This document shows, in pieces, positions 4,657 through 18,968 of a stretch of 18,968 bases of DNA (position 1 is its first letter; every line of letters starts with the position of its first letter). The DNA lies in NCBI GenBank assembly GCA_041288095.1, contig JBGGMJ010000046.1:1-18968 (forward strand). Reading direction: 5' to 3'. Both the position numbers and the translations under genes were made by a program. A model generated the notes under the pieces. That model saw only the letters and a list, made by a program, of their open reading frames with translations, did no database searches and was not told the origin of the DNA. Source of the DNA: Myxococcota bacterium (lineage in GTDB: Bacteria > Myxococcota > XYA12-FULL-58-9 > JALHOP01).

Positions 4657-4971
4657 GTGACCATCAAGAAGACCGTCATTGGTCGCGGCCTGCCCCGGAT
4701 CCACCCGGGGCTCGAGCAGAAGCTGCGCGAGGCCGAGGACGCCGAGAAGAAGGGCAAGCGCGTCCGCACCTATGACGGCGTGCAGCGCGTCACCCGCCCC
4801 TCGCTCGATGCTTCGACGGAAGAGCGGGCCTGGCAAGCGCGCACCATCGGTCTCATCGATCCTCAGTACAAGCTCGAGAACGACGCGCTGCAACCGCTCG
4901 CCGAGCAGGCCGCCTTCCGTCCAGGTCAGGACCTCGACAAGATCTGGGACGAGCTCGGCGAGGCCGAGTAA
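4657..4971 (+). CDS. Hypothetical protein (N-terminal fragment of the interrupted HD-like frame)
   Basis: 104-aa ORF with typical high-GC3 codon usage, GTG start and a candidate promoter immediately upstream. Confidence 0.5.
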   Translation: MTIKKTVIGRGLPRIHPGLEQKLREAEDAEKKGKRVRTYDGVQRVTRPSLDASTEERAWQARTIGLIDPQYKLENDALQPLAEQAAFRPGQDLDKIWDELGEAE

Positions 4972-5007
4972 ATTCGCGCCGGCGCCATCGAGCGCTTCCG
5001 CCTCGAG

Positions 5008-6183
5008 ATGGAGTCGGTGCTCAGGCGCGCCGGCAGGGAGTACAAGGAGCCCCACCGCATCGGCGGACGTCTCGACGCCCGTAACCTCAAGCGCAGCGCC
5101 GAAAACGTCAGCGCCGAGGTCGCGACCTTCGCGGAGGTCTTGGCACCCGACAGCTACAGTCTGCTATTGCGGTTCGTCGAAGAGACGCGCGCGGTCCTCG
5201 ATTCGGCGATGCGCCAGCAGGCGGTGCAAGGCGTCGACGCCGTGTTCACCTACGAGCTGGTGCGCGACATGGCACGCAAGCTCGTCTACCAAGAGCTGGT
5301 CTCGCGGCGACGCGGCATGGGCGACCGCGGCATCCGCCGCATCATCGCCAACATCCAGCTCGGCGAATCTCTATACGGCCAGCTCGTGCCGCAAGGCCTC
5401 GCCACCGTCCGCCATCGCATCATGATGCGCATCATCCACGTGCATCAAGACCTCGGGCACACGGCGTATGCGGCGCGCGTGAGCTTTCGCGGCGGCCGCC
5501 TGCATCGCGCTTACGGCGCACGCATCTTCACCGACGAGACCAACAGACTGCGGCCGCTGCTCACGCCCACGGAGCTCGATCTGGTGCGCGCCGCCGTGGC
5601 GACCCACTCCTCCGAAGAGCTGCCGTTCGCGCAAGAGATGGTGCTCGCCTTGGTGCGCGTCGCCGATCACCTGGCGCCGTTCGCGCCTCACCGCGTCTAC
5701 AAGCATCTCGAGGGTATTGCCGGCGTCACCGACTACCTCGACGACATGTTGGCGCGCGCCCGCGCCGGTGACGGTCCCCGCTATGCCGCGATCCGCTCCT
5801 CGCTGCGACGCTACCTCGCGGAGAACACCGAGCTGCCCGAGACGCTGCGCGACGACATCATCGCCGACTTCCGGCCGATCGATCGCGGCGCCGACTTCAT
5901 CGAGATCGGGCCCATGGCGGGCGAGGTCAGCGGCATCACCATCGAGCCACGCGCCAACGGCTCGGCTGGCCGGGTACTCGCGCAGGTCACCTACGACGCG
6001 TTCAGCCACCGCTATCAAGGACTGTTCGATCACCAGCAAGACCAGCTCACGCGCCTCGCCCGCACCACGCGAGTCGACCTCGCCAAGGCGCGAGAGCAGG
6101 TGCGCTTCATGGTGAGCGGCCATGGCTCGCTCGATCTGGAGTTCGTCATGCCACCGGAGCCGGTCGAGAGTGGCGCCGCCTGA
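5008..6183 (+). CDS. HD-domain-like protein with degenerate metal ligands (C-terminal part of the interrupted frame)
   Basis: Motif order matches HD-fold proteins: GDRGIRR (cf. DHGxxH), HVHQDLGH (cf. HDxG), HRAYGA, AVATHS, LVRVADHL. Confidence 0.7.
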   Translation: MESVLRRAGREYKEPHRIGGRLDARNLKRSAENVSAEVATFAEVLAPDSYSLLLRFVEETRAVLDSAMRQQAVQGVDAVFTYELVRDMARKLVYQELVSRRRGMGDRGIRRIIANIQLGESLYGQLVPQGLATVRHRIMMRIIHVHQDLGHTAYAARVSFRGGRLHRAYGARIFTDETNRLRPLLTPTELDLVRAAVATHSSEELPFAQEMVLALVRVADHLAPFAPHRVYKHLEGIAGVTDYLDDMLARARAGDGPRYAAIRSSLRRYLAENTELPETLRDDIIADFRPIDRGADFIEIGPMAGEVSGITIEPRANGSAGRVLAQVTYDAFSHRYQGLFDHQQDQLTRLARTTRVDLAKAREQVRFMVSGHGSLDLEFVMPPEPVESGAA

Positions 6184-6346
6184 CGTGTGGGCGTTGCTGG
6201 GCCTGACGCAGTTGGGCCGCGGTGACGCGGGTGAGCGCCGAATTTCGGCTGGGTCGCGGACACCCTAGAGCACAGACACCTCCACCCAACCGGCTCGGAT
6301 CGCTCGCGGAAGGGCTTCCGGGCGGCCCGGACGCGCTCTCAGGCCG

Positions 6347-6361
6347 TGGCACAGCACTTGA
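6347..6361 (+). promoter_or_regulatory. sigma54 (RpoN)-type -24/-12 promoter
   Basis: TGGCAC-agcac-TTGA versus consensus TGGCAC-N5-TTGC, with exact spacing and one mismatch. It is followed by an AT-rich melting region (AAATAGATA); +1 is predicted near 6371-6373. Confidence 0.6.
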
Positions 6362-6370
6362 AATAGATAG

Positions 6371-6530
6371 GAACCGAGGGCGGCGACGCCCTGGTTCGAC
6401 CCTTCTTTTCTCTGCATGTGTCGCCCCTGCGCGACTCCCAAGTTTCCGTCGGGCCAACCCGACACCCTTCCCCCCTCTGCCTGCGCGGCGCCCGGTCCAA
6501 AAGCCGGGCGCCGCCTCCCTCCTTTTTGGA
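6371..6530 (+). ncRNA. Candidate structured small RNA with four stem-loops and C/U-rich linkers
   Basis: Begins at the predicted sigma54 +1. Stems at 6371-6397 (GCGA GNRA tetraloop), 6420-6435, 6448-6463 and 6485-6514 (11 bp perfect). Linkers are pyrimidine-rich; T-tract at 6523-6527. Confidence 0.5.
6485..6527 (+). terminator. Terminator-like GC hairpin followed by a displaced T-tract
   Basis: GCGGCGCCCGG-tccaaaag-CCGGGCGCCGC, then ctccctcc and TTTTT. The 8-nt gap before the T-tract is non-canonical. Confidence 0.4.
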
Positions 6531-6563
6531 CGCCACAGTGCCGCAAGGTCTCCCCGTGGAGGC

Positions 6564-6590
6564 GCAACCCGCGTCGCAGCGGCCCGATAA
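6564..6590 (+). promoter_or_regulatory. sigma28-like promoter, GCAAC-N14-CCCGATAA
   Basis: 7/8 match to GCCGATAA with GCAA at the canonical N15 spacing, 25 nt upstream of an in-frame TTG that has a GGAG RBS. Confidence 0.55.
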
Positions 6591-6615
6591 AGCTCCAACA
6601 AAACTGGAGCTCCGC

Positions 6616-7491
6616 TTGGGTCCGACTACCGTCAAAGAGTCCATCGCACCGCCCCTGAACATCGTCGGAGCCTCTTCGCTGACTGGCCGCGAGGTCGTCC
6701 CGGTCGCCTCGGCGGGGCAATCAATGCCTCTCGCCGTCGCCGCGTCCTTGATCCGGGAGCAGGACAGCAGCTTCGAGCGCGTCACCTACGGCAAGGCCGA
6801 CTTTCACAACGGGCCATTCGTGCGCGCCAAGAATTGGTGCGCTCGCAACGACCTCAACGTCGACGGCAGCAACTCGCGCGTCGCGGTCGGCTTCGTCGGT
6901 ATCGCCGGCGCCCTGGCGGCGACCATCGGTTATCACGTCTACGTGAACACCGATCCGAACGTCATCACAGCGATCACCGGTGCGCTCATTGCCGCGCCGT
7001 TCCTGGGCTCGCGTTACGTCGTGGGCGCGATCGATTCCCTCGCCGCGCGCAGCATCAAGAAAGCCTTGCGCCGGCAGGTGCAGCTCGAAGCCGTGCGGCC
7101 GAGCATCGTGGCCTTCCGCGAGAGCGTCGGCGTGGAGAAGGCCTTGCGCGGCACGGTCTTGACCTCGTGGTTCGAGCTCATGGACACGAAACGCGCGCTC
7201 AGCGGTCCCGCGCGGGTCGAGCTCATGCGCGTCAAGCAAGAGCTCGAGGCCTTGAGGGCATCCGATCGCAACGACGCGAGTCGTCTCTTCGAGCTCACCA
7301 AGCTGGTCGACGCCAAGGGCGACGTCAGCAGCCATGCCGTCGATGCGATCGTCAGCCAGCTGCAAACCGCTTCAGACGATGAGCGTGCCGCCCTCGCGCA
7401 GGGCGTCGTGCAGCTCCTCCACGAGAACGGCCGCGACGTCGACTACGTTCCCGGCCATAAGCTCCACGAGCTGACCATCGAAAAGCGTTAA
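6616..7491 (+). CDS. Hypothetical membrane protein (two-TM hairpin plus helical C-terminus)
   Basis: Same frame as ORF 6418-7491; start reassigned to TTG 6616 (GGAG at 6606-6609, promoter motif just upstream). Hydrophobic segments VAVGFVGIAGALAATIGYHVYV and VITAITGALIAAPFLG. The stop overlaps the pdxA stop (TTAA 7488-7491). ATG 6724 is an alternative start. Confidence 0.72.
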   Translation: MGPTTVKESIAPPLNIVGASSLTGREVVPVASAGQSMPLAVAASLIREQDSSFERVTYGKADFHNGPFVRAKNWCARNDLNVDGSNSRVAVGFVGIAGALAATIGYHVYVNTDPNVITAITGALIAAPFLGSRYVVGAIDSLAARSIKKALRRQVQLEAVRPSIVAFRESVGVEKALRGTVLTSWFELMDTKRALSGPARVELMRVKQELEALRASDRNDASRLFELTKLVDAKGDVSSHAVDAIVSQLQTASDDERAALAQGVVQLLHENGRDVDYVPGHKLHELTIEKR

Positions 7492-8402
7492 CGCTTGACG
7501 CAGAGCTCCAACGCGAGCTCCAGGGCCGACAGCATGCCCGCCGGCCGCGCCTGGTCCTTGCCGGCGATGTCGTAGGCGGTGCCGTGATCCGGTGATGTGC
7601 GCGGATGCGTTAGGCCGAGCGTCACGTTGACCGCGTCGCCAAAGCCGAGCAGCTTCACGGGGATGAGCGCCTGGTCGTGATAGAGCGCGACGACGCCGTC
7701 GAACTCCCCGTCAACGGCGCGGCGAAACAGGGTGTCGGCGGGATAGGGTCCGCTCAAGCGCACACCGGCCGCGCGCGCCGCCGCCACCGCCGGCTCGAGG
7801 ATCAGCTTTTCGTCGTCACCCAAGAGGCCGTCTTCGCCGGCATGCGGATTGAGGGCGGCCAGCGCCAGATTCGGATCGGCGATGCCGAGGTGAGAGCGCA
7901 GAGCCGCCGTGAAGAGCGCGGCCACCTCGACGATGCGCGCGGCTGAAAGCTGCTTGATCGCCAGCGCCAGCGGCACGTGGACGGTCGCCAGCACGGTGCG
8001 CAGCTGCGGCGAGAAGAACGCCATCGCGGTCGGGCCGGTGCCCATCTCGCGCGCCAGGATCTCGGTATGGCCGCGATCGTTGCTGCCGGCCAACGCCAAG
8101 GCATGCTTCGAGATGGGAGCGGTGACGAGGCCGTCCGCCTGTCCGCTCTTGCACAAGGCGATACCGGCGGCGAGCGTATCGAGCGCGGCGCGGCCACTGG
8201 CGGCGCTCGCGCGACCGAGAGGCCCCGCGAAGGGCGCGATGGAGTGGGCACGCTTGCCCAAGCGCCGCGCCATCGGGTCCGCTATGTTTTCGGGCCCGAC
8301 GACGATGATGCTCGCGGCCGCCGGCAGAGTCGCGATCGCTTTTTCGGTGACCTCGGGCCCGATGCCCGCCGGGTCGCCCACCGTGACCGCCAAAACAGTC
8401 AT
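7488..8402 (-). CDS. pdxA: 4-hydroxythreonine-4-phosphate dehydrogenase
   Basis: Signature motifs GDPAGIGPE, VTAPISK, GHTE, LNPHAGEDG, GPYPADT, YHDQALIPVK, RTSPDHGTAYDIAG; directly downstream of surA. Confidence 0.97.
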   Translation of the reverse strand: MTVLAVTVGDPAGIGPEVTEKAIATLPAAASIIVVGPENIADPMARRLGKRAHSIAPFAGPLGRASAASGRAALDTLAAGIALCKSGQADGLVTAPISKHALALAGSNDRGHTEILAREMGTGPTAMAFFSPQLRTVLATVHVPLALAIKQLSAARIVEVAALFTAALRSHLGIADPNLALAALNPHAGEDGLLGDDEKLILEPAVAAARAAGVRLSGPYPADTLFRRAVDGEFDGVVALYHDQALIPVKLLGFGDAVNVTLGLTHPRTSPDHGTAYDIAGKDQARPAGMLSALELALELCVKR

Positions 8403-8405
8403 GTC

Positions 8406-9545
8406 CTAGATACGGACGTCGATGAATGCCTTGGCGCGCAGCTCCTGCATCCAGGCACCCATCTGGCGCTCCATCTCCTCTTGATAGATCTCGTTGCGGA
8501 ACTGGTTGAGCGCGTCGCCGCTGCAGTCGAGAGGCGCTTCCTCGGGGACGGTGTCCTTGCCGGCGAGCTTGATGACATGGAAGCCGAACGGCGTCTTCAC
8601 CACGCTCGAGACCTCTCCCGACTTGAGCGCGAACGTCGCCTTTTCGAACTCCTCGACCATCTCGCCGCGCGCGAAGCAGATGCGCCCATCGGGCGACGCT
8701 TTGTCGTCCGAGTACTTGTTGGCGTAGGCCTTGAAATCAGCGCCGTTCACGAGCTCCGCCCGGAGCTGCACCGCTTTGGCGTACAAGCGTTCGGTCTCCG
8801 TCGCGCCGGCGCCGTCGGGAACGCGCAACAGGACGTGCATGGCACAGACCTTCTTGTCGTCGCCGATGCGGCCACGCTCTTCGCAACGGCGCAGGACCTC
8901 GGCCTCCTTCACCTGCACGCGGCCCTGCACCTTGAACTGCACGAGGCGCGCCCGCTCGATCTGATCGCGCAGCTTCTTGCGGTATTCGGACCAGGTCATG
9001 CCCTGACTGTAGAGCGCTGCCTGCAGTTGATCCTCGGTGATGTTGTTCATGCGCAAGACTTCTTGCACGGCGCGGTCGACGTCCTGCTCGGTGACGCCGA
9101 GGCGATCTTTGTTGGTGCCGAGCTCGTGCGAGACGATGCGCTCGTCGATCTCGATGTTGAGCACCTGCTTCAAGATGGCGACGCGCTTCTTGTCGCGTTC
9201 GCTCGGGTCAGTCACGCCCTCGAGCTGGCTCATGTAGGGCTGCGCCTTCTTCTCGAGCTCGCGGATGGTGATGACTTCGTCCTCGATGACGCAGGCAATG
9301 CGATCGACACCAGTGCGCGGCCCCTTGGGCGTCGTTCGCTGCATCGGCGCGAGCTTTGGCGGCGGCTTGCGGCGCTTGTCGTCCTTGTCCTTGTCCATGT
9401 TCGGGAAGCTGTTGTTGTTGCGGCCGCCGAAGCCACCACCACCGCCTCGGCCGCCCATGCCACCCATGCCGCCGTATTGGGCATGCGCACTGTCCGCGAT
9501 AGCGAGCACGGCGAGCCAAGCCACGATGAACGTCTTAAATGACAC
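8406..9545 (-). CDS. surA: SurA-like periplasmic chaperone / parvulin PPIase
   Basis: VDRIACVIEDEVIT (SurA N-domain), a parvulin domain (HVLLRV...YSDD...GEMVEEFEKATFAL...KTPFGFHVIK) and WMQELRAKAFIDVR end. Start reassigned to GTG 9545 (GAGGAG upstream, signal peptide ending AHA-Q), overlapping the previous gene's end. Confidence 0.88.
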   Translation of the reverse strand: MSFKTFIVAWLAVLAIADSAHAQYGGMGGMGGRGGGGGFGGRNNNSFPNMDKDKDDKRRKPPPKLAPMQRTTPKGPRTGVDRIACVIEDEVITIRELEKKAQPYMSQLEGVTDPSERDKKRVAILKQVLNIEIDERIVSHELGTNKDRLGVTEQDVDRAVQEVLRMNNITEDQLQAALYSQGMTWSEYRKKLRDQIERARLVQFKVQGRVQVKEAEVLRRCEERGRIGDDKKVCAMHVLLRVPDGAGATETERLYAKAVQLRAELVNGADFKAYANKYSDDKASPDGRICFARGEMVEEFEKATFALKSGEVSSVVKTPFGFHVIKLAGKDTVPEEAPLDCSGDALNQFRNEIYQEEMERQMGAWMQELRAKAFIDVRI

Positions 9546-10473
9546 GGGACAACTGCTCCTCACGAACCACGATCTGCGATTTGCTCCGCAGCTCGGCGAT
9601 CTTCGCCGCATGGGCGTCTCGTTCTTTGTCTTTACGGAGCCGCGCCTCGACGTCATCGCGTACCTTTTCGATGGGACGCGGGGCCGGCGGGCGATGCTCG
9701 AGCACTTTGAACACGTGAAAGCCGTATTCGCTAGGGATCACGGGGCTCACCTGGTTCACCGGCAGCTTGAAACAGGCCTCGTCGATGACCTTGGGCATCT
9801 CACCGTGCGCGAAGAAGCCGAGATCACCGCCGTTCTTGGCCTCTGGGCTAATGGATTCGCGCATCGCCACCTCTTCGAAGGCCTTGCCGGCGCGTAGCTC
9901 CTGGAGGACGCGTTTTCCGTCCTCTTCGGTCTTCACGATGATCTGACGGGCGCGGACCTGCTCGGGGGAGACGTTCAGCGCCGGGTTCTTCGTAAGATAG
10001 CCCTCGATCTCGGCGTCGGTCACGGCGACGCGCGAGTAAACGTGGTCGTGGAAGTACTTGCGGATGACGAGCAGCTCCCGCACCTCGGCTTTGAGCTCGG
10101 CCGTGGTCATGTCTTTCTTCTGCAAGAGCTGGTCGAACTCGTCGTCGCGCCAACCCTGGCGTAGGTTGTCGTAGCCGCGGTCGACGTCGTCGGTGCCGAC
10201 GATGACGTTTTCGGCCTCGGCGGCGCGCGTCAGCAAGCGCCGATCGATCAACATGTCGAGGATGGCGCGCTTCTGGGCGTCGTCCGAGGTCTGCGACGGC
10301 AGCCCTGCCTCATCGTCGTCGCTACCGCCGTGGAAACGCTTGAGCTCACGCTCGAGCTCGTCGACGTAGATCGGCGAGCCAGAGACCGTGGCGAGGATCT
10401 CGCGGCGTTCTTCTTGGTTGTCGTTCTTGCATGCGACGGCCGCCATCGCGGCGACGAGCACGAGACGTTTCAT
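9535..10473 (-). CDS. Parvulin (PpiC-type) peptidyl-prolyl isomerase lipoprotein, PrsA/SurA-like
   Basis: MKRLVLVAAMAAVAC lipobox; VRARQIIVK, GGDLGFF, SEYGFHVFKV rotamase motifs; ATGA overlap with the upstream gene. Confidence 0.92.
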   Translation of the reverse strand: MKRLVLVAAMAAVACKNDNQEERREILATVSGSPIYVDELERELKRFHGGSDDDEAGLPSQTSDDAQKRAILDMLIDRRLLTRAAEAENVIVGTDDVDRGYDNLRQGWRDDEFDQLLQKKDMTTAELKAEVRELLVIRKYFHDHVYSRVAVTDAEIEGYLTKNPALNVSPEQVRARQIIVKTEEDGKRVLQELRAGKAFEEVAMRESISPEAKNGGDLGFFAHGEMPKVIDEACFKLPVNQVSPVIPSEYGFHVFKVLEHRPPAPRPIEKVRDDVEARLRKDKERDAHAAKIAELRSKSQIVVREEQLSRVI

Positions 10474-11441
10474 GGAGTCGGCTCCTGCGCCGCTTCGATG
10501 CTGCGTTGCAAGCCCTCGAGCACCAGGGCGAGCTTGTCGTCGTAGACGGCGATTGGATAGCGCGCGCGCAGCTCGGCGAGGTACTTGTCGAACGCGAGCG
10601 ACCGCTGGTTCTTCAGGAGCCTCTCGCGGATCTCGTCGCGCACCTCGTCGATCGGCCGTGCCAAAGCCTCACGCACCGCGACGACGCGCACCACGTGCCA
10701 GCCCTTGGTGCTCTGCACCGGCTGGGCGGCCATCTCGTTGGTGGCGAGAGAGAAAACGTCGTTCGCGAAAGAGACACCGAGCTCGCTCGCCAGCTCCTGC
10801 TTGGTCTTGAAGAGCAGCTCGCCGCCGCGGTCCTTCGACTCGGACGCAGTGGAGAAGCGCTGCGCCATGGTCTTGAAGAGCGCCCGGTTGTCCGTTTTAG
10901 CGGCGAGCTCGGTGATGAGCGCGGCGGCGGTCGACTGGCCCTTCTCGTCGGGTGAGAGCTGGATGTGCGCGATGCGCCGCATCTCCGGCTGCATGTACTG
11001 ATCGCGGTTGCGATCGTAATACGACTGCATCTCCTTCTCGGAGACGACGACACCCTCTTCGTTGAAAGTCGCCTCGCCGAGATCGCGCTCGAGGAGCTTA
11101 CGGACCATGATCTTGCGCGCCGCGGCGATGACCTCGGGATCGTGGTCGAGCCCGCGCTCCAGCGCGGCTTGCGCGAGGAGCTCCAAGCGCACCTGGTCCT
11201 CGACGAACTGCTTCACCTCGCCGACGTCTTTGTAGCGACGCGGCGCCGCCTGTCCCTGGGCGCGGATGGCTTCGACAATCTGGTCGCGGGTGATCGGAGT
11301 GATGCCGACCTTGGCCACCGCCGGGCCCTCCTGCACCGCTGGCTGCAAGCACCGACCGCTGCTACCCGAACGACCTTGCGGCGGCGTGCAAGCCACCAAG
11401 GCGAGGCAGAGAAGATGAGCTAAGACGCGGCCGTAAGGCAT
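10470..11441 (-). CDS. Parvulin (PpiC-type) peptidyl-prolyl isomerase lipoprotein
   Basis: Start at ATG 11441 gives MPYGRVLAHLLCLALVAC (lipobox); RRIAHIQL, SKDRGGEL, PVQSTKGWHVVRV rotamase motifs. Confidence 0.9.
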   Translation of the reverse strand: MPYGRVLAHLLCLALVACTPPQGRSGSSGRCLQPAVQEGPAVAKVGITPITRDQIVEAIRAQGQAAPRRYKDVGEVKQFVEDQVRLELLAQAALERGLDHDPEVIAAARKIMVRKLLERDLGEATFNEEGVVVSEKEMQSYYDRNRDQYMQPEMRRIAHIQLSPDEKGQSTAAALITELAAKTDNRALFKTMAQRFSTASESKDRGGELLFKTKQELASELGVSFANDVFSLATNEMAAQPVQSTKGWHVVRVVAVREALARPIDEVRDEIRERLLKNQRSLAFDKYLAELRARYPIAVYDDKLALVLEGLQRSIEAAQEPTP

Positions 11442-11504
11442 CGGTGCCAGGTGGGTAGCACCCGGAACCTGCTCAAGCAACCAACCGGCTGCGCCGCGGG
11501 TGAT

Positions 11505-13397
11505 CTAGCGCTGAGCCGCCGCGTGACGAGCCAGGTAATCGCGAATCGTCTGCTTGGCGTGGGTCACGGCCTCGAACGGCTCCTGCCCCGTTGGCCACAC
11601 CAGCTCGAGGACGTCGAGGGCACGGCGGGCTGCGTCCGGATTCGGCAGGACGCCCGGCGCGGCGTCGTCTGACACCGTGTTCACGGTTTCGAGCAAGCGG
11701 CGGTAGGTCGCGCGCTCGGCCTCGGGACGCGAGCTGTCGGCAACGCGACGTTCGAGCTCCGCACGGAAGGCGGCCGGATTGATCATGTACGGGAAGGCGA
11801 AGGAGCGCTCCGGGGTCGCGAAGACACGGCGACGGAATTCCGGATCCATCGTGATGTCACCATTACGATCGGCTTCCTGCATGGCGCCGTAGAGACCGAT
11901 GAGGATCGAGTCACCGCAGTGCCCGAAGACGCCGTAGCCATCGGCGCGCAAGCGCTGCGCGGTAGCGGACGTCGATATGGTGTCGGCATAGAGGCCGGCG
12001 TCGATGATCGTGCGCAAGGCAGCAGGGCCTCGCACGGTCACGTAATCGCGACCATTGGTCCAGGCCGAATCACGCTCGACGCTGCCCGGGAAGAAGCCGA
12101 TGTTGCTTACGCCCTGGAACCACGCAGCGCCGCCGGTGATGCGCGGGCCGGGCGCGGCGGCATCCGCCGGCGGGCGCACGCTAACGTTGAGCTCGAAGTG
12201 GACCCAAGGCACCAGCGCCTGGCGTCCATCGGCGCCGCGTAGACCGATAGTCGAAAACGTCGGCACGGCGAGCTTGGTGAAGGAGCCGTCGGCGTTACGC
12301 ACCGACAGGTCGGGGAGATCCGCGCCCTGCATGCGCAGGCGCACCTCGAGCTGGTGGCCGCTCGCCTGGAGATCGGTGAGGAAGCTGGCGAGGCTCGTGT
12401 ACGTCTTGTCGCCAAAACGGACACTGAAGCGCTCCCCTGGGTTCTTGACATGCTCGTTCGAGCCAAGGCGGTCGAGGACCTCGGACCAGAGGCGATTCTG
12501 ACGCTCGGCGGTGAGGTCGCCGGTCGCGGGCAGCTCGCCGTAGTAGAGGGGGCCGGCAACTTGCCGCGGATTCACGCGGTTGGTGCGGATAGTCGAAAGG
12601 TCGAAGGTGTTGAGATCGACGTGACGGCCGAGCTGATGGTCACGCTCCGTGCCACCGACCTGACCGGCCTGGTACGCGCGATTGAGATGCTGGAAGCCGG
12701 TGCGGACCTCGTCCGGGCCCCAGGCGAAGATGCGCATGAAGAGCTCGGGGCGATTGAGGAGACTGCGAACCGCGAACTCGGGCAGGGGGATGCCCTGCGC
12801 GCGCAAGACCTGCGTGAGCTCGCGCTGGAGCTCCGGGTTCTGCTGCGCCAGGCGGAACATTTCGGGATAGCTGAGCGTGTCGTTGTAGCGCGTGGTGTCG
12901 AGGCGCATGGCGGTCGAGAAATCCGCAAAGCCCTCCGGCGGATGCAGAGCACGCTCACGCAGCATGCCCATGAGGTCGCCCTTGGCGTTGGCCGCGGGCT
13001 CCGGCACCAAGAGAGGAAGGCCGAACAGGAAGCCGACCGAGTCGGCCCAAGCGGCGGCAGCGGTGCCGACGATGCCGGTAGCCACGGCGCCGGCGCGGTA
13101 GCCGGTCCCGCCGAGAGCCCACAGGTCGCGGGTGATGCCGTAGTTTGCGCGGCTCCAGCCGCCGACGCGCGAGAAGGGCGAATACCAGCGCGAGCCCGAC
13201 TCGGCTGGTGGATCGGGCTGCGGCGTCGAGGCCGGGCGAGCGGTCGGTGTCGATTGAGCGCGAACGACCGGGAGCCGCGGGGTGGCGTCCGCGATGCGGA
13301 GGATGGGGGGCTGGGCCGGGGCATCGTCGGTGAGCACCACGGGGGTTCGATTGGGCTCGACTCTGGAAGCTGGGGAAAGAGGTGCCACTGCGACCAT
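11505..13397 (-). CDS. Hypothetical protein, 630 aa, with Pro-rich disordered N-terminus
   Basis: Long ORF with coding-like codon bias; about 70-aa Pro/Thr/Ala-rich leader, one hydrophobic segment (AVATGIVGTAAAAWADSVGFLFGLPLLV) and a globular C-terminal part containing GYGVFGHCGDS. Confidence 0.8.
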   Translation of the reverse strand: MVAVAPLSPASRVEPNRTPVVLTDDAPAQPPILRIADATPRLPVVRAQSTPTARPASTPQPDPPAESGSRWYSPFSRVGGWSRANYGITRDLWALGGTGYRAGAVATGIVGTAAAAWADSVGFLFGLPLLVPEPAANAKGDLMGMLRERALHPPEGFADFSTAMRLDTTRYNDTLSYPEMFRLAQQNPELQRELTQVLRAQGIPLPEFAVRSLLNRPELFMRIFAWGPDEVRTGFQHLNRAYQAGQVGGTERDHQLGRHVDLNTFDLSTIRTNRVNPRQVAGPLYYGELPATGDLTAERQNRLWSEVLDRLGSNEHVKNPGERFSVRFGDKTYTSLASFLTDLQASGHQLEVRLRMQGADLPDLSVRNADGSFTKLAVPTFSTIGLRGADGRQALVPWVHFELNVSVRPPADAAAPGPRITGGAAWFQGVSNIGFFPGSVERDSAWTNGRDYVTVRGPAALRTIIDAGLYADTISTSATAQRLRADGYGVFGHCGDSILIGLYGAMQEADRNGDITMDPEFRRRVFATPERSFAFPYMINPAAFRAELERRVADSSRPEAERATYRRLLETVNTVSDDAAPGVLPNPDAARRALDVLELVWPTGQEPFEAVTHAKQTIRDYLARHAAAQR

Positions 13398-18145: not shown

Positions 18146-18968
18146 TCAAGGGGTCGCCTTCAAAAGCCCGACCTCGTGGCGGATGACCCGCAGCAGATCC
18201 GCGTCCGTCGAGCCGGGCGGCATGTCGACGGTGATTTGCAAGCGCCCGCTCGGTAACAAACGATAGCGCTGCGGCTCGCGCTGCAGCTTCTTGGCGAGAT
18301 CGTCGCGGTCGAGCGGCGCTTCGGCCACGAAGGAGAGGCCCATCTTGGCGACACCCGCGTCCGCCACGGCAGACAAGGCGCTGCAGCCCATCGCCTTGAG
18401 CCGGCGGCGGATGACCATGACCTCGGCGAGCTGCGCCACTTCTTGGGGCGGGTCGCCGAAGCGCTCACCGATCTCGGTGTAGACGTCGAACACGGCCTCG
18501 TCCGTCGAAGCAGACGCCATGCGCTGGTAGAGCTCGAGGCGCAACATCGGGTCCGGGAGGTACGATTCGGGAAGGACCGCGGTGACCGGCACCTTGATGT
18601 CGGGCTCGACGTCGACACGCGCGCGCTGACCTTTGACGCGCTCGACCGCTTCGGCGAGCAGCTCGGTATAAAGCTCGAAGCCAACGGCGGCGATATTGCC
18701 GCTCTGCTCGGCGCCCAATAGGTCACCGGCGCCACGCAGGTCGAGATCGTGCGAGGCGATCTGAAAACCGCTGCCGAGCATGCTTTCGCGCTTGAGCACG
18801 GCGAGGCGCTCGACCGCGTCTTTGGTAAGGTTGTCGCCGGGCGGCAAGAGCAAATACGCGAAGGCGCGCTCACGCGAGCGGCCGATGCGGCCACGCAGCT
18901 GGTAGAGCTGCGCCAGGCCAAAAGTGTCGGCGCGGTTCACGATCATGGTGTTGGCGCTGGGGATGTCG
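18146..18968 (-). CDS. mfd: Transcription-repair coupling factor, C-terminal part (truncated by the window edge)
   Basis: DIPSANTMIVNRADTFGLAQLYQLRGRIGRS, TRG motif GSGFQIASHDLDLRGAGDLLGAEQSG and TRCF domain (LPESYLPD...RLELYQRMA). The frame stays open to the window end. Confidence 0.97.
   Translation of the reverse strand, partial: DIPSANTMIVNRADTFGLAQLYQLRGRIGRSRERAFAYLLLPPGDNLTKDAVERLAVLKRESMLGSGFQIASHDLDLRGAGDLLGAEQSGNIAAVGFELYTELLAEAVERVKGQRARVDVEPDIKVPVTAVLPESYLPDPMLRLELYQRMASASTDEAVFDVYTEIGERFGDPPQEVAQLAEVMVIRRRLKAMGCSALSAVADAGVAKMGLSFVAEAPLDRDDLAKKLQREPQRYRLLPSGRLQITVDMPPGSTDADLLRVIRHEVGLLKATP

Follow-up and report, generated by a model that had tools for sequence, protein, structure and literature searches.

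In Vibrio, the small RNA (sRNA) genes Qrr1-4 lie behind a sigma54 promoter, and in Firmicutes, RsaE/RoxS are base-pairing sRNAs with C-rich seeds. For Pxr of Myxococcus, transcription from a sigma54 promoter and a stem-loop fold are described (PMC5568312), and the 6C sRNA of Actinobacteria is described as binding mRNAs via C-rich loops (PMC6486639). Here, we analyzed contig JBGGMJ010000046.1 of a Myxococcota bacterium (assembly GCA_041288095.1), the whole of which (18,968 bp, ~67% G+C) is the window to which all positions refer, and in it a candidate element that sits in a 432-bp gap separating two plus-strand genes (4657-6183 and 6616-7491). An earlier note, made from the sequence without database searches, had proposed that this gap holds an unannotated sRNA. 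The sequence features that it listed are all present on the plus strand at 6347-6530 and go beyond chance, and the sRNA interpretation is plausible and partly supported: the best single reading, held tentatively and with its chances short of even, is that of a sigma54-driven, base-pairing candidate sRNA of ~155 nt that would cover purine-rich ribosome-binding sites with its pyrimidine tracts. On this reading, a non-coding RNA would start on the plus strand at ~6372 from a sigma54-type promoter at 6347-6361 and, being ~155 nt long, would most likely end near a T-run at 6523-6527. Four hairpins would hold three 14-nt pyrimidine tracts single-stranded, the tracts would pair in trans with purine-rich translation-initiation regions of putative target mRNAs, and this pairing would block ribosome entry once an enhancer-binding protein turned the promoter on.

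The putative promoter is a rare match. TGGCAC-N5-TTGM occurs exactly once in the contig (6347-6361, plus strand), where 0.07 matches were expected and at least one arose in 14 of 200 shuffles. The box is intergenic, lies in the same orientation as the proposed RNA, and is followed at 6362-6371 by the A/T-rich stretch AATAGATAGG. Its -24 half, TGGCACA (6347-6353), carries the expected GG within TGGCAC and is the same as that of the actB promoter in the accessible part of PMC9765219, which gives the M. xanthus sigma54 promoter consensus as TGGCACG-N4-TTGC(T/A). The -24/-12 box of the earlier note therefore stood as to its exact -24 half, its correct spacing, and its being the only such match, but not as to its -12 half, which reads GA rather than GC. 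Counted from G6360/A6361 as the -12 doublet, the predicted +1 falls at 6372-6374, that is, at the first base of the first hairpin. Sigma54 promoters have enhancer-binding protein sites ~80-150 bp upstream and depend on a cognate activator; here, direct repeats (TGACGCAGTTGGGC at 6204-6217 and TGACGCGGGTGAGC at 6223-6236) and a palindrome (GCCGAA-T-TTCGGC, 6237-6249) stand ~125-170 bp before the predicted +1, as possible activator sites that, being short two-copy matches, may also be chance. A second GG-N10-GC arrangement, TTGGACGCCACAGTGCC (6528-6541, plus strand), begins where the T-run stops and is otherwise a poor match to the sigma54 consensus; simple arithmetic predicts about a dozen TGG-N9-TGC patterns per contig, which puts this arrangement at chance level.

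From the predicted +1 onward, the plus strand is structured to an extent unusual for this contig. The four hairpins (H1 to H4) that the earlier note had seen there, the first with a GCGA loop, were all present in the RNAfold prediction (6372-6514), and the folding check that it had proposed came out in its favor: 6372-6530 folded at -66.3 kcal/mol (z = -4.26), with none of 200 shuffles equally stable. In a sliding 159-nt scan of the plus strand, the segment 6361-6519 ranked first of 355 windows (z = -4.53, against a mean of -0.28, a standard deviation of 1.07, and a runner-up at -4.01), and the candidate fold (z of about -4.3 to -4.5) tops all 705 windows taken over both strands. The 188 nt from the upstream stop codon to the +1 (6184-6371) showed no excess structure (z = +0.25, 116 of 200 shuffles equally stable). 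Strong scores were also seen elsewhere in or across coding regions, at 18339-18497 (plus strand, -4.0), 11926-12084 (plus strand, -3.96), and 8163-8321 (minus strand, -3.8); since windows inside genes also reach z values near -4, the fold score alone is not decisive. Within the fold, the H4 loop region GTCCAAAA (6495-6502) is the exact complement of TTTTGGAC (6524-6531) in the region of the T-run, a match that could reflect a pseudoknot, an alternative pairing, or chance.

The structure favors one strand. A functional RNA might instead be read from the minus strand, where purine-rich sequence with GGA motifs between hairpins would act as a sponge for a CsrA/RsmA-type protein, and that strand does fold (-73.0 kcal/mol for 6372-6530, z = -2.57, 3 of 200 shuffles equally stable) and does carry six GGA triplets. 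About six are expected from base composition by simple arithmetic, however, and one alone lies in a hairpin loop; the window is unremarkable in the minus-strand scan (z = -1.72, against a best of -3.80 for the strand, with 350 of 355 windows covered), the strand has no promoter-like site there, and it is without any T-run in the whole contig. Two elements of the fold are specific to the plus strand, the GNRA-type loop of H1 and the U-G pair that closes H4. We regard a minus-strand sponge as very improbable.

The C/U-rich single strands that the earlier note had placed between the hairpins were borne out as three 14-nt all-pyrimidine tracts, with probabilities of being unpaired of 0.97, 0.97, and 0.81. 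These are the sole plus-strand pyrimidine runs of at least 11 nt in the contig. Their number is unexceptional (three pyrimidine runs of at least 13 nt in the contig versus a shuffle mean of 2.03, no excess), and it is their clustering within 128 nt of one strand that is rare: three such runs fell within 130 nt in none of 3,000 shuffles, and clusters of two in 52. Tracts 1 and 2 have CCCTTC-Y4-CTCTGC in common, differing in the central TTTT/CCCC and in two flanking bases (a 16-of-21 match), and CCCTTC[Y4]CTCT occurs at 6400 and 6465 alone when both strands of the window and of 80 PdxA loci are considered. Those 80 loci, which with the window amount to 1.2 Mb, are the PdxA loci among the matches listed; they have 35-49% identity and come from other phyla, with no Myxococcota relative among them, and they were obtained with a 19-sequence PdxA alignment as the query, matched through the universal motifs YHDQ[AG]LIP and PDHGTA[YF]D. 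In tract 3, the segment CCUCCCUCCUUUUU is complementary to ribosome-binding sites of the GGAGG type, and GGAG-like motifs stand before several genes of the contig.

By its codon composition and the outcome of protein searches, the segment is non-coding, and the start at 6418 is spurious. The long open reading frame (ORF) has position-specific G+C fractions of 0.74/0.61/0.73, versus ~0.62-0.72, 0.42-0.51, and 0.85-0.86 in the real genes, and no frame of the gap carries the codon-position pattern of the contig. Pfam returned no family for any of five mechanical ORFs over the gap, and phmmer, run with the 91-aa minus frame 6342-6614, matched none of 1.84 billion representatives, a null that bears on coding and cannot show the absence of the RNA in relatives. 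The TTG at 6616, with GGAG (6606-6609) before it, marks where the downstream protein P0002 begins, and its relative P0003 starts at the matching position. The earlier note was thus right about a spurious ORF start in a non-coding gap and wrong about the codon: the long ORF opens with GTG at 6418, and the ATG at 6416 opens a separate 80-aa frame. That the segment is nonetheless translated, be it from GTG 6418 as an N-terminal extension of the downstream protein or from ATG 6416 as an ORF of 80 aa, is scarcely credible: both frames are open, but the homologous starts at TTG 6616, the gene-unlike codon composition, and the lack of a Pfam match speak against it, and no purine-rich ribosome-binding site precedes 6416 or 6418, where CUUUUCUCUGC stands instead.

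Table 1. Features of the candidate locus and its neighbors in the 18,968-bp window
Feature	Position	Strand	Description
Upstream gene	4657-6183	+	Conserved ~500-aa family, function not assigned; 57 homologues
Possible activator (enhancer-binding protein) sites	6204-6249		Direct repeats and palindrome; short two-copy matches, may be chance
Sigma54-type -24/-12 box, TGGCACA-N4-TTGAA	6347-6361	+	TGGCACAGCACTTGA; perfect -24 half, -12 half GA not GC
Hairpin 1 (H1)	6372-6396	+	10 bp, one bulged G, GCGA (GNRA-type) tetraloop; -15.6 kcal/mol
Pyrimidine tract 1	6400-6413	+	CCCTTCTTTTCTCT; probability unpaired 0.97
Hairpin 2 (H2)	6420-6435	+	Weak; 5 bp, 6-nt loop CCCUGC; -7.3 kcal/mol
Linker	6436-6447	+	TCCCAAGTTTCC; mostly unpaired, probability unpaired 0.90 for 6437-6447
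Hairpin 3 (H3)	6448-6463	+	6 bp, loop CCAA; -10.6 kcal/mol; retained in centroid
Pyrimidine tract 2	6465-6478	+	CCCTTCCCCCCTCT; probability unpaired 0.97
Hairpin 4 (H4)	6485-6514	+	Strongest; 12-bp G+C-rich stem, loop CCAAAA; -29.0 kcal/mol
Pyrimidine tract 3	6514-6527	+	CCTCCCTCCTTTTT; CCUCC (complement of GGAGG), ends in T5; probability unpaired 0.81
Two-part hairpin	6578-6627	+	Encloses GGAG 6606-6609 and TTG start 6616-6618; -22.4 kcal/mol
Downstream gene	6616-7491	+	291-aa protein P0002, membrane-like, two hydrophobic segments, no known family
pdxA	7488-8402	-	Downstream of the 291-aa gene

A number of results weigh against a sigma54-driven sRNA that ends at the T-run and acts in trans. 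Where the consensus has GC in TTGC(T/A), 4 nt past the 7-nt -24 half, the box has the right spacing and the sequence TTGAA; PMC9765219 lists 12 sigma54 promoters of M. xanthus in a table, with GC at -12 in 11 of them, GT in 1 (nla6, mutationally characterized), and GA in none. With one mismatch allowed, the same box pattern was found twice against an expectation of 2.04, which is chance level. No sigma54-activator domain was found in any of the 14 window proteins scanned, and the window has no enhancer-binding protein gene. At the proposed 3' end, the T5 run starts 8 nt past H4, from which it is separated by the C-rich CUCCCUCC, and the intrinsic terminator scan, which requires a T-rich tail 0-2 nt after the stem, found 0 sites at the locus; given this spacing, H4 and the T-run do not make a canonical intrinsic terminator, though the 12-bp G+C-rich stem is present. 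Rfam gave 0 hits at gathering scores over the locus. Searches with 6340-6535 by blastn-short and nhmmer against the window and the 80 distant PdxA loci found the query alone and no second copy, a null that does not bear on relatives. For 13 start regions of the window, the RNA gave duplex energies that did not surpass those with random 42-nt windows; the stems dominate the score, which makes this comparison uninformative. The hairpin at 6578-6627 around the start of the downstream gene is itself significant (z = -3.35, 1 of 200 shuffles equally stable) and is retained in the centroid of the 289-nt fold. Finally, since the next gene lies on the same strand 90 nt past the T-run and has no detectable promoter, read-through of a leader is equally natural. 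The RNA interpretation of the earlier note thus stood as to non-coding sequence, strand-specific structure from the +1, and exposed C/U tracts, and fell short at the 3' end, with its distant T-run and no terminator found.

The last two points lead directly to a serious but rather unlikely rival, in which the same transcript is the ~244-nt 5' leader of gene 6616-7491, the box is the promoter of that gene, H4 with the T-run attenuates in part at most, and leader and ribosome-binding-site hairpin tune translation in cis. The position and strand of that gene fit this account, and no other promoter-like site stands within 5900-7000. With the T-run 8 nt off the stem, termination should be inefficient. 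The GGAG and TTG start of the gene lie inside the significant hairpin, which in the modeled fold suggests that translation of gene 6616-7491 may be masked by default, and GGAGGCG at 6557-6563 is a complement of the CGCCUCC in tract 3. Less favorable to a leader is that, in the centroid of the 289-nt fold, the hairpin region and the start region keep no long-range pairs with each other, and that the block of structure and pyrimidine-rich sequence has sharp limits at the +1 and the T-run. The promoter argument is also weaker than it looks: a sigma70-type scan found 0 sites in 5900-7000, but it found 0 in the entire contig as well (1.5 expected) and is therefore insensitive for this organism, so that its silence here means little. 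The same holds for the T-tract that the earlier note had placed before the promoter of the next gene: the T5 at 6523-6527 is real, one of three T5-or-longer runs on the plus strand, whereas no such promoter was found by this insensitive scan.

The pyrimidine bias admits another reading, a serious rival though quite unlikely in our judgment, in which transcription of the upstream gene (4657-6183) terminates in the gap. The unpaired C-over-G tracts would then be a Rho loading (Rut) site with the hairpins looped out, H4 and the T-run would aid release, and the box would be fortuitous. Rut sites are C>G-biased, according to the accessible part of PMC13650167, and the stretch at 6426-6525 (plus strand) has a (C-G)/length of 0.26, the second-highest non-overlapping 100-nt peak on either strand, in a region with a GC skew of -0.38. 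The top 100-nt window of the contig (0.29) lies at 13234-13333 on the minus strand, in the 5' part of a 630-aa gene (11505-13397). The tracts are predicted to be unpaired, as a C>G-biased and poorly structured Rut site would have it, whereas the hairpins between them are strongly structured. Hairpin-interrupted Rut sites do exist, as in lambda tR1. Intrinsic terminators are not enriched in the contig (10 found versus 11.7 expected), which makes factor-dependent termination plausible, and because the upstream gene and pdxA apparently share contigs in relatives, a terminator between them is to be expected. Against this, tract 1 begins 216 nt past the stop codon, with 188 nt in between that lack structure or bias; the exact -24 box, the A/T-rich stretch, and the onset of structure at the +1 are left unexplained; and the 16-of-21 motif common to tracts 1 and 2 exceeds what mere composition needs.

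The arrangement may, lastly, lack any function: in an intergenic region that varies, a promoter-like hexamer would have arisen by chance next to G+C-rich hairpins and pyrimidine DNA of low complexity. The case rests on a single sequence, an exact box arises in shuffled contigs at the rate given above, comparable fold scores occur inside genes (18339-18497 and 11926-12084), and the downstream gene, with just two relatives, marks the locus as evolutionarily young. We nevertheless consider this distinctly unlikely, as independent rarities, namely, the box, the structure at the +1, the clustered tracts, and the T-run, coincide within 180 nt of one strand. Because an exact -24 half, an A/T-rich stretch, structure onset at the +1, a repeated accessible motif, and a T-run that is rare in this contig come together, a functional plus-strand RNA element at this locus is likely, though well short of certain.

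Searches for known families assigned the candidate to none, as the earlier note had anticipated when it could name no family for it. Rfam includes models of both Pxr and Qrr. With E values up to 10 allowed over 6150-6750, three generic hairpin or composition matches (E of 1.3-4.5) were returned and discarded; none was to Pxr, so the check for that RNA suggested by the earlier note came back negative. A blastn search against plasmid and phage collections gave no match, and no description of a similar RNA was found in the open-access literature searched.

The genomic context gives no functional hint, since searches of the neighboring proteins in Pfam, NCBIfam, and PDB found no family for either gap neighbor. 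For the downstream 291-aa protein, the protein search found just two relatives, including P0003 at 63% identity. PdxA and the protein of the upstream gene have relatives at up to 86% and 85% identity, respectively, the named ones being metagenome-assembled genomes labeled "Myxococcota bacterium" or "Deltaproteobacteria bacterium." Many homologue pairs apparently share a contig, suggestive of linkage between the upstream gene and pdxA in metagenome-assembled genomes across Myxococcota. Because the flanking genes seem linked across the group, yet the 291-aa gene has just two relatives, the sRNA-like region and that gene may occupy a variable slot between them. In the upstream gene, an in-frame TAA at 4969-4971 breaks the reading frame at a position that is lysine in P0125, which is otherwise identical, and in P0126, which is 85% identical; a nonsense mutation, an error of sequencing or assembly, or read-through could account for it. 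Three consecutive SurA/PPIase-like genes (8406-11480, minus strand) adjoin pdxA, and the 3' part of an mfd-like gene lies further along (18146-18946).

Among described systems, Pxr comes closest. It has the same phylum-level background and a fold of multiple stem-loops, and its promoter is predicted to be of the sigma54 type, with an enhancer site lying upstream (PMC5568312, PMC5684412); a published probe implies a C-rich segment in Pxr. The differences are as clear. In the available part of PMC5568312, Pxr of M. xanthus and related Cystobacterineae has 108 nt and three stem-loops, versus ~155 nt and four hairpins here, and it sits between pxrR/nla19 and an NADH dehydrogenase gene, whereas the candidate lies between a ~500-aa gene and a 291-aa membrane-like gene. 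The window of the candidate, with 14 proteins scanned, has no activator gene. Identity with Pxr is ruled out by the absence of an Rfam match, by the 26-nt Pxr probe having 0 matches at up to 3 mismatches, and by the other location and architecture.

With GlmY of Enterobacteriaceae and NcS25 of Burkholderia, the candidate would have in common an sRNA gene directly behind a -24/-12 promoter. It differs from these and from Qrr in having no Rfam similarity and a deviating -12 element; membership in Qrr is ruled out, as there was no match to the Qrr model. Like 6C and RsaE/RoxS, it has accessible C-rich motifs able to pair with G-rich ribosome-binding sites, but in those RNAs the C-rich motifs lie in hairpin loops, whereas here they are 14-nt C/U tracts in linkers and a 3' tail, with no Rfam match. 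Rut sites resemble the candidate, an unpaired stretch of ~100 nt behind a gene, in their C>G bias (PMC13650167), but they need no promoter box, precise hairpin array, or repeated motif.

What the locus would mean depends on which of these comparisons holds. As a leader or as a Rho loading site, it would be nothing out of the ordinary, a regulatory or termination element of local annotation value alone. Pxr is the sole myxobacterial sRNA that we found studied in depth in the literature searched, and the host lineage of the present candidate is known from metagenome-assembled contigs; a second sigma54-wired RNA, with polypyrimidine seeds borne on linkers, would widen the repertoire of enhancer-dependent RNAs and would also give a handle on its activator and regulon. 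A bolder proposal, which we consider unlikely, is that this is the first of a new class of sigma54-controlled RNAs in uncultured Myxococcota, in which three tandem 14-nt polypyrimidine modules, separated by hairpins, would occupy several purine-rich ribosome-binding sites at once or titrate a factor that binds pyrimidines, such as Rho, S1, or a cold-shock protein. Equally doubtful is the makeup that goes with it, in which the working parts would be not the loops but a pair of CCCUUC-Y4-CUCUGC modules together with the tail CCUCCCUCCUUUUU, which resembles an anti-Shine-Dalgarno sequence. Should the candidate sRNA be real, its features would place it in action with the sigma54-dependent and C-rich-seed sRNAs, as a member of no named family, its seeds set, unusually, in the linkers and the tail.

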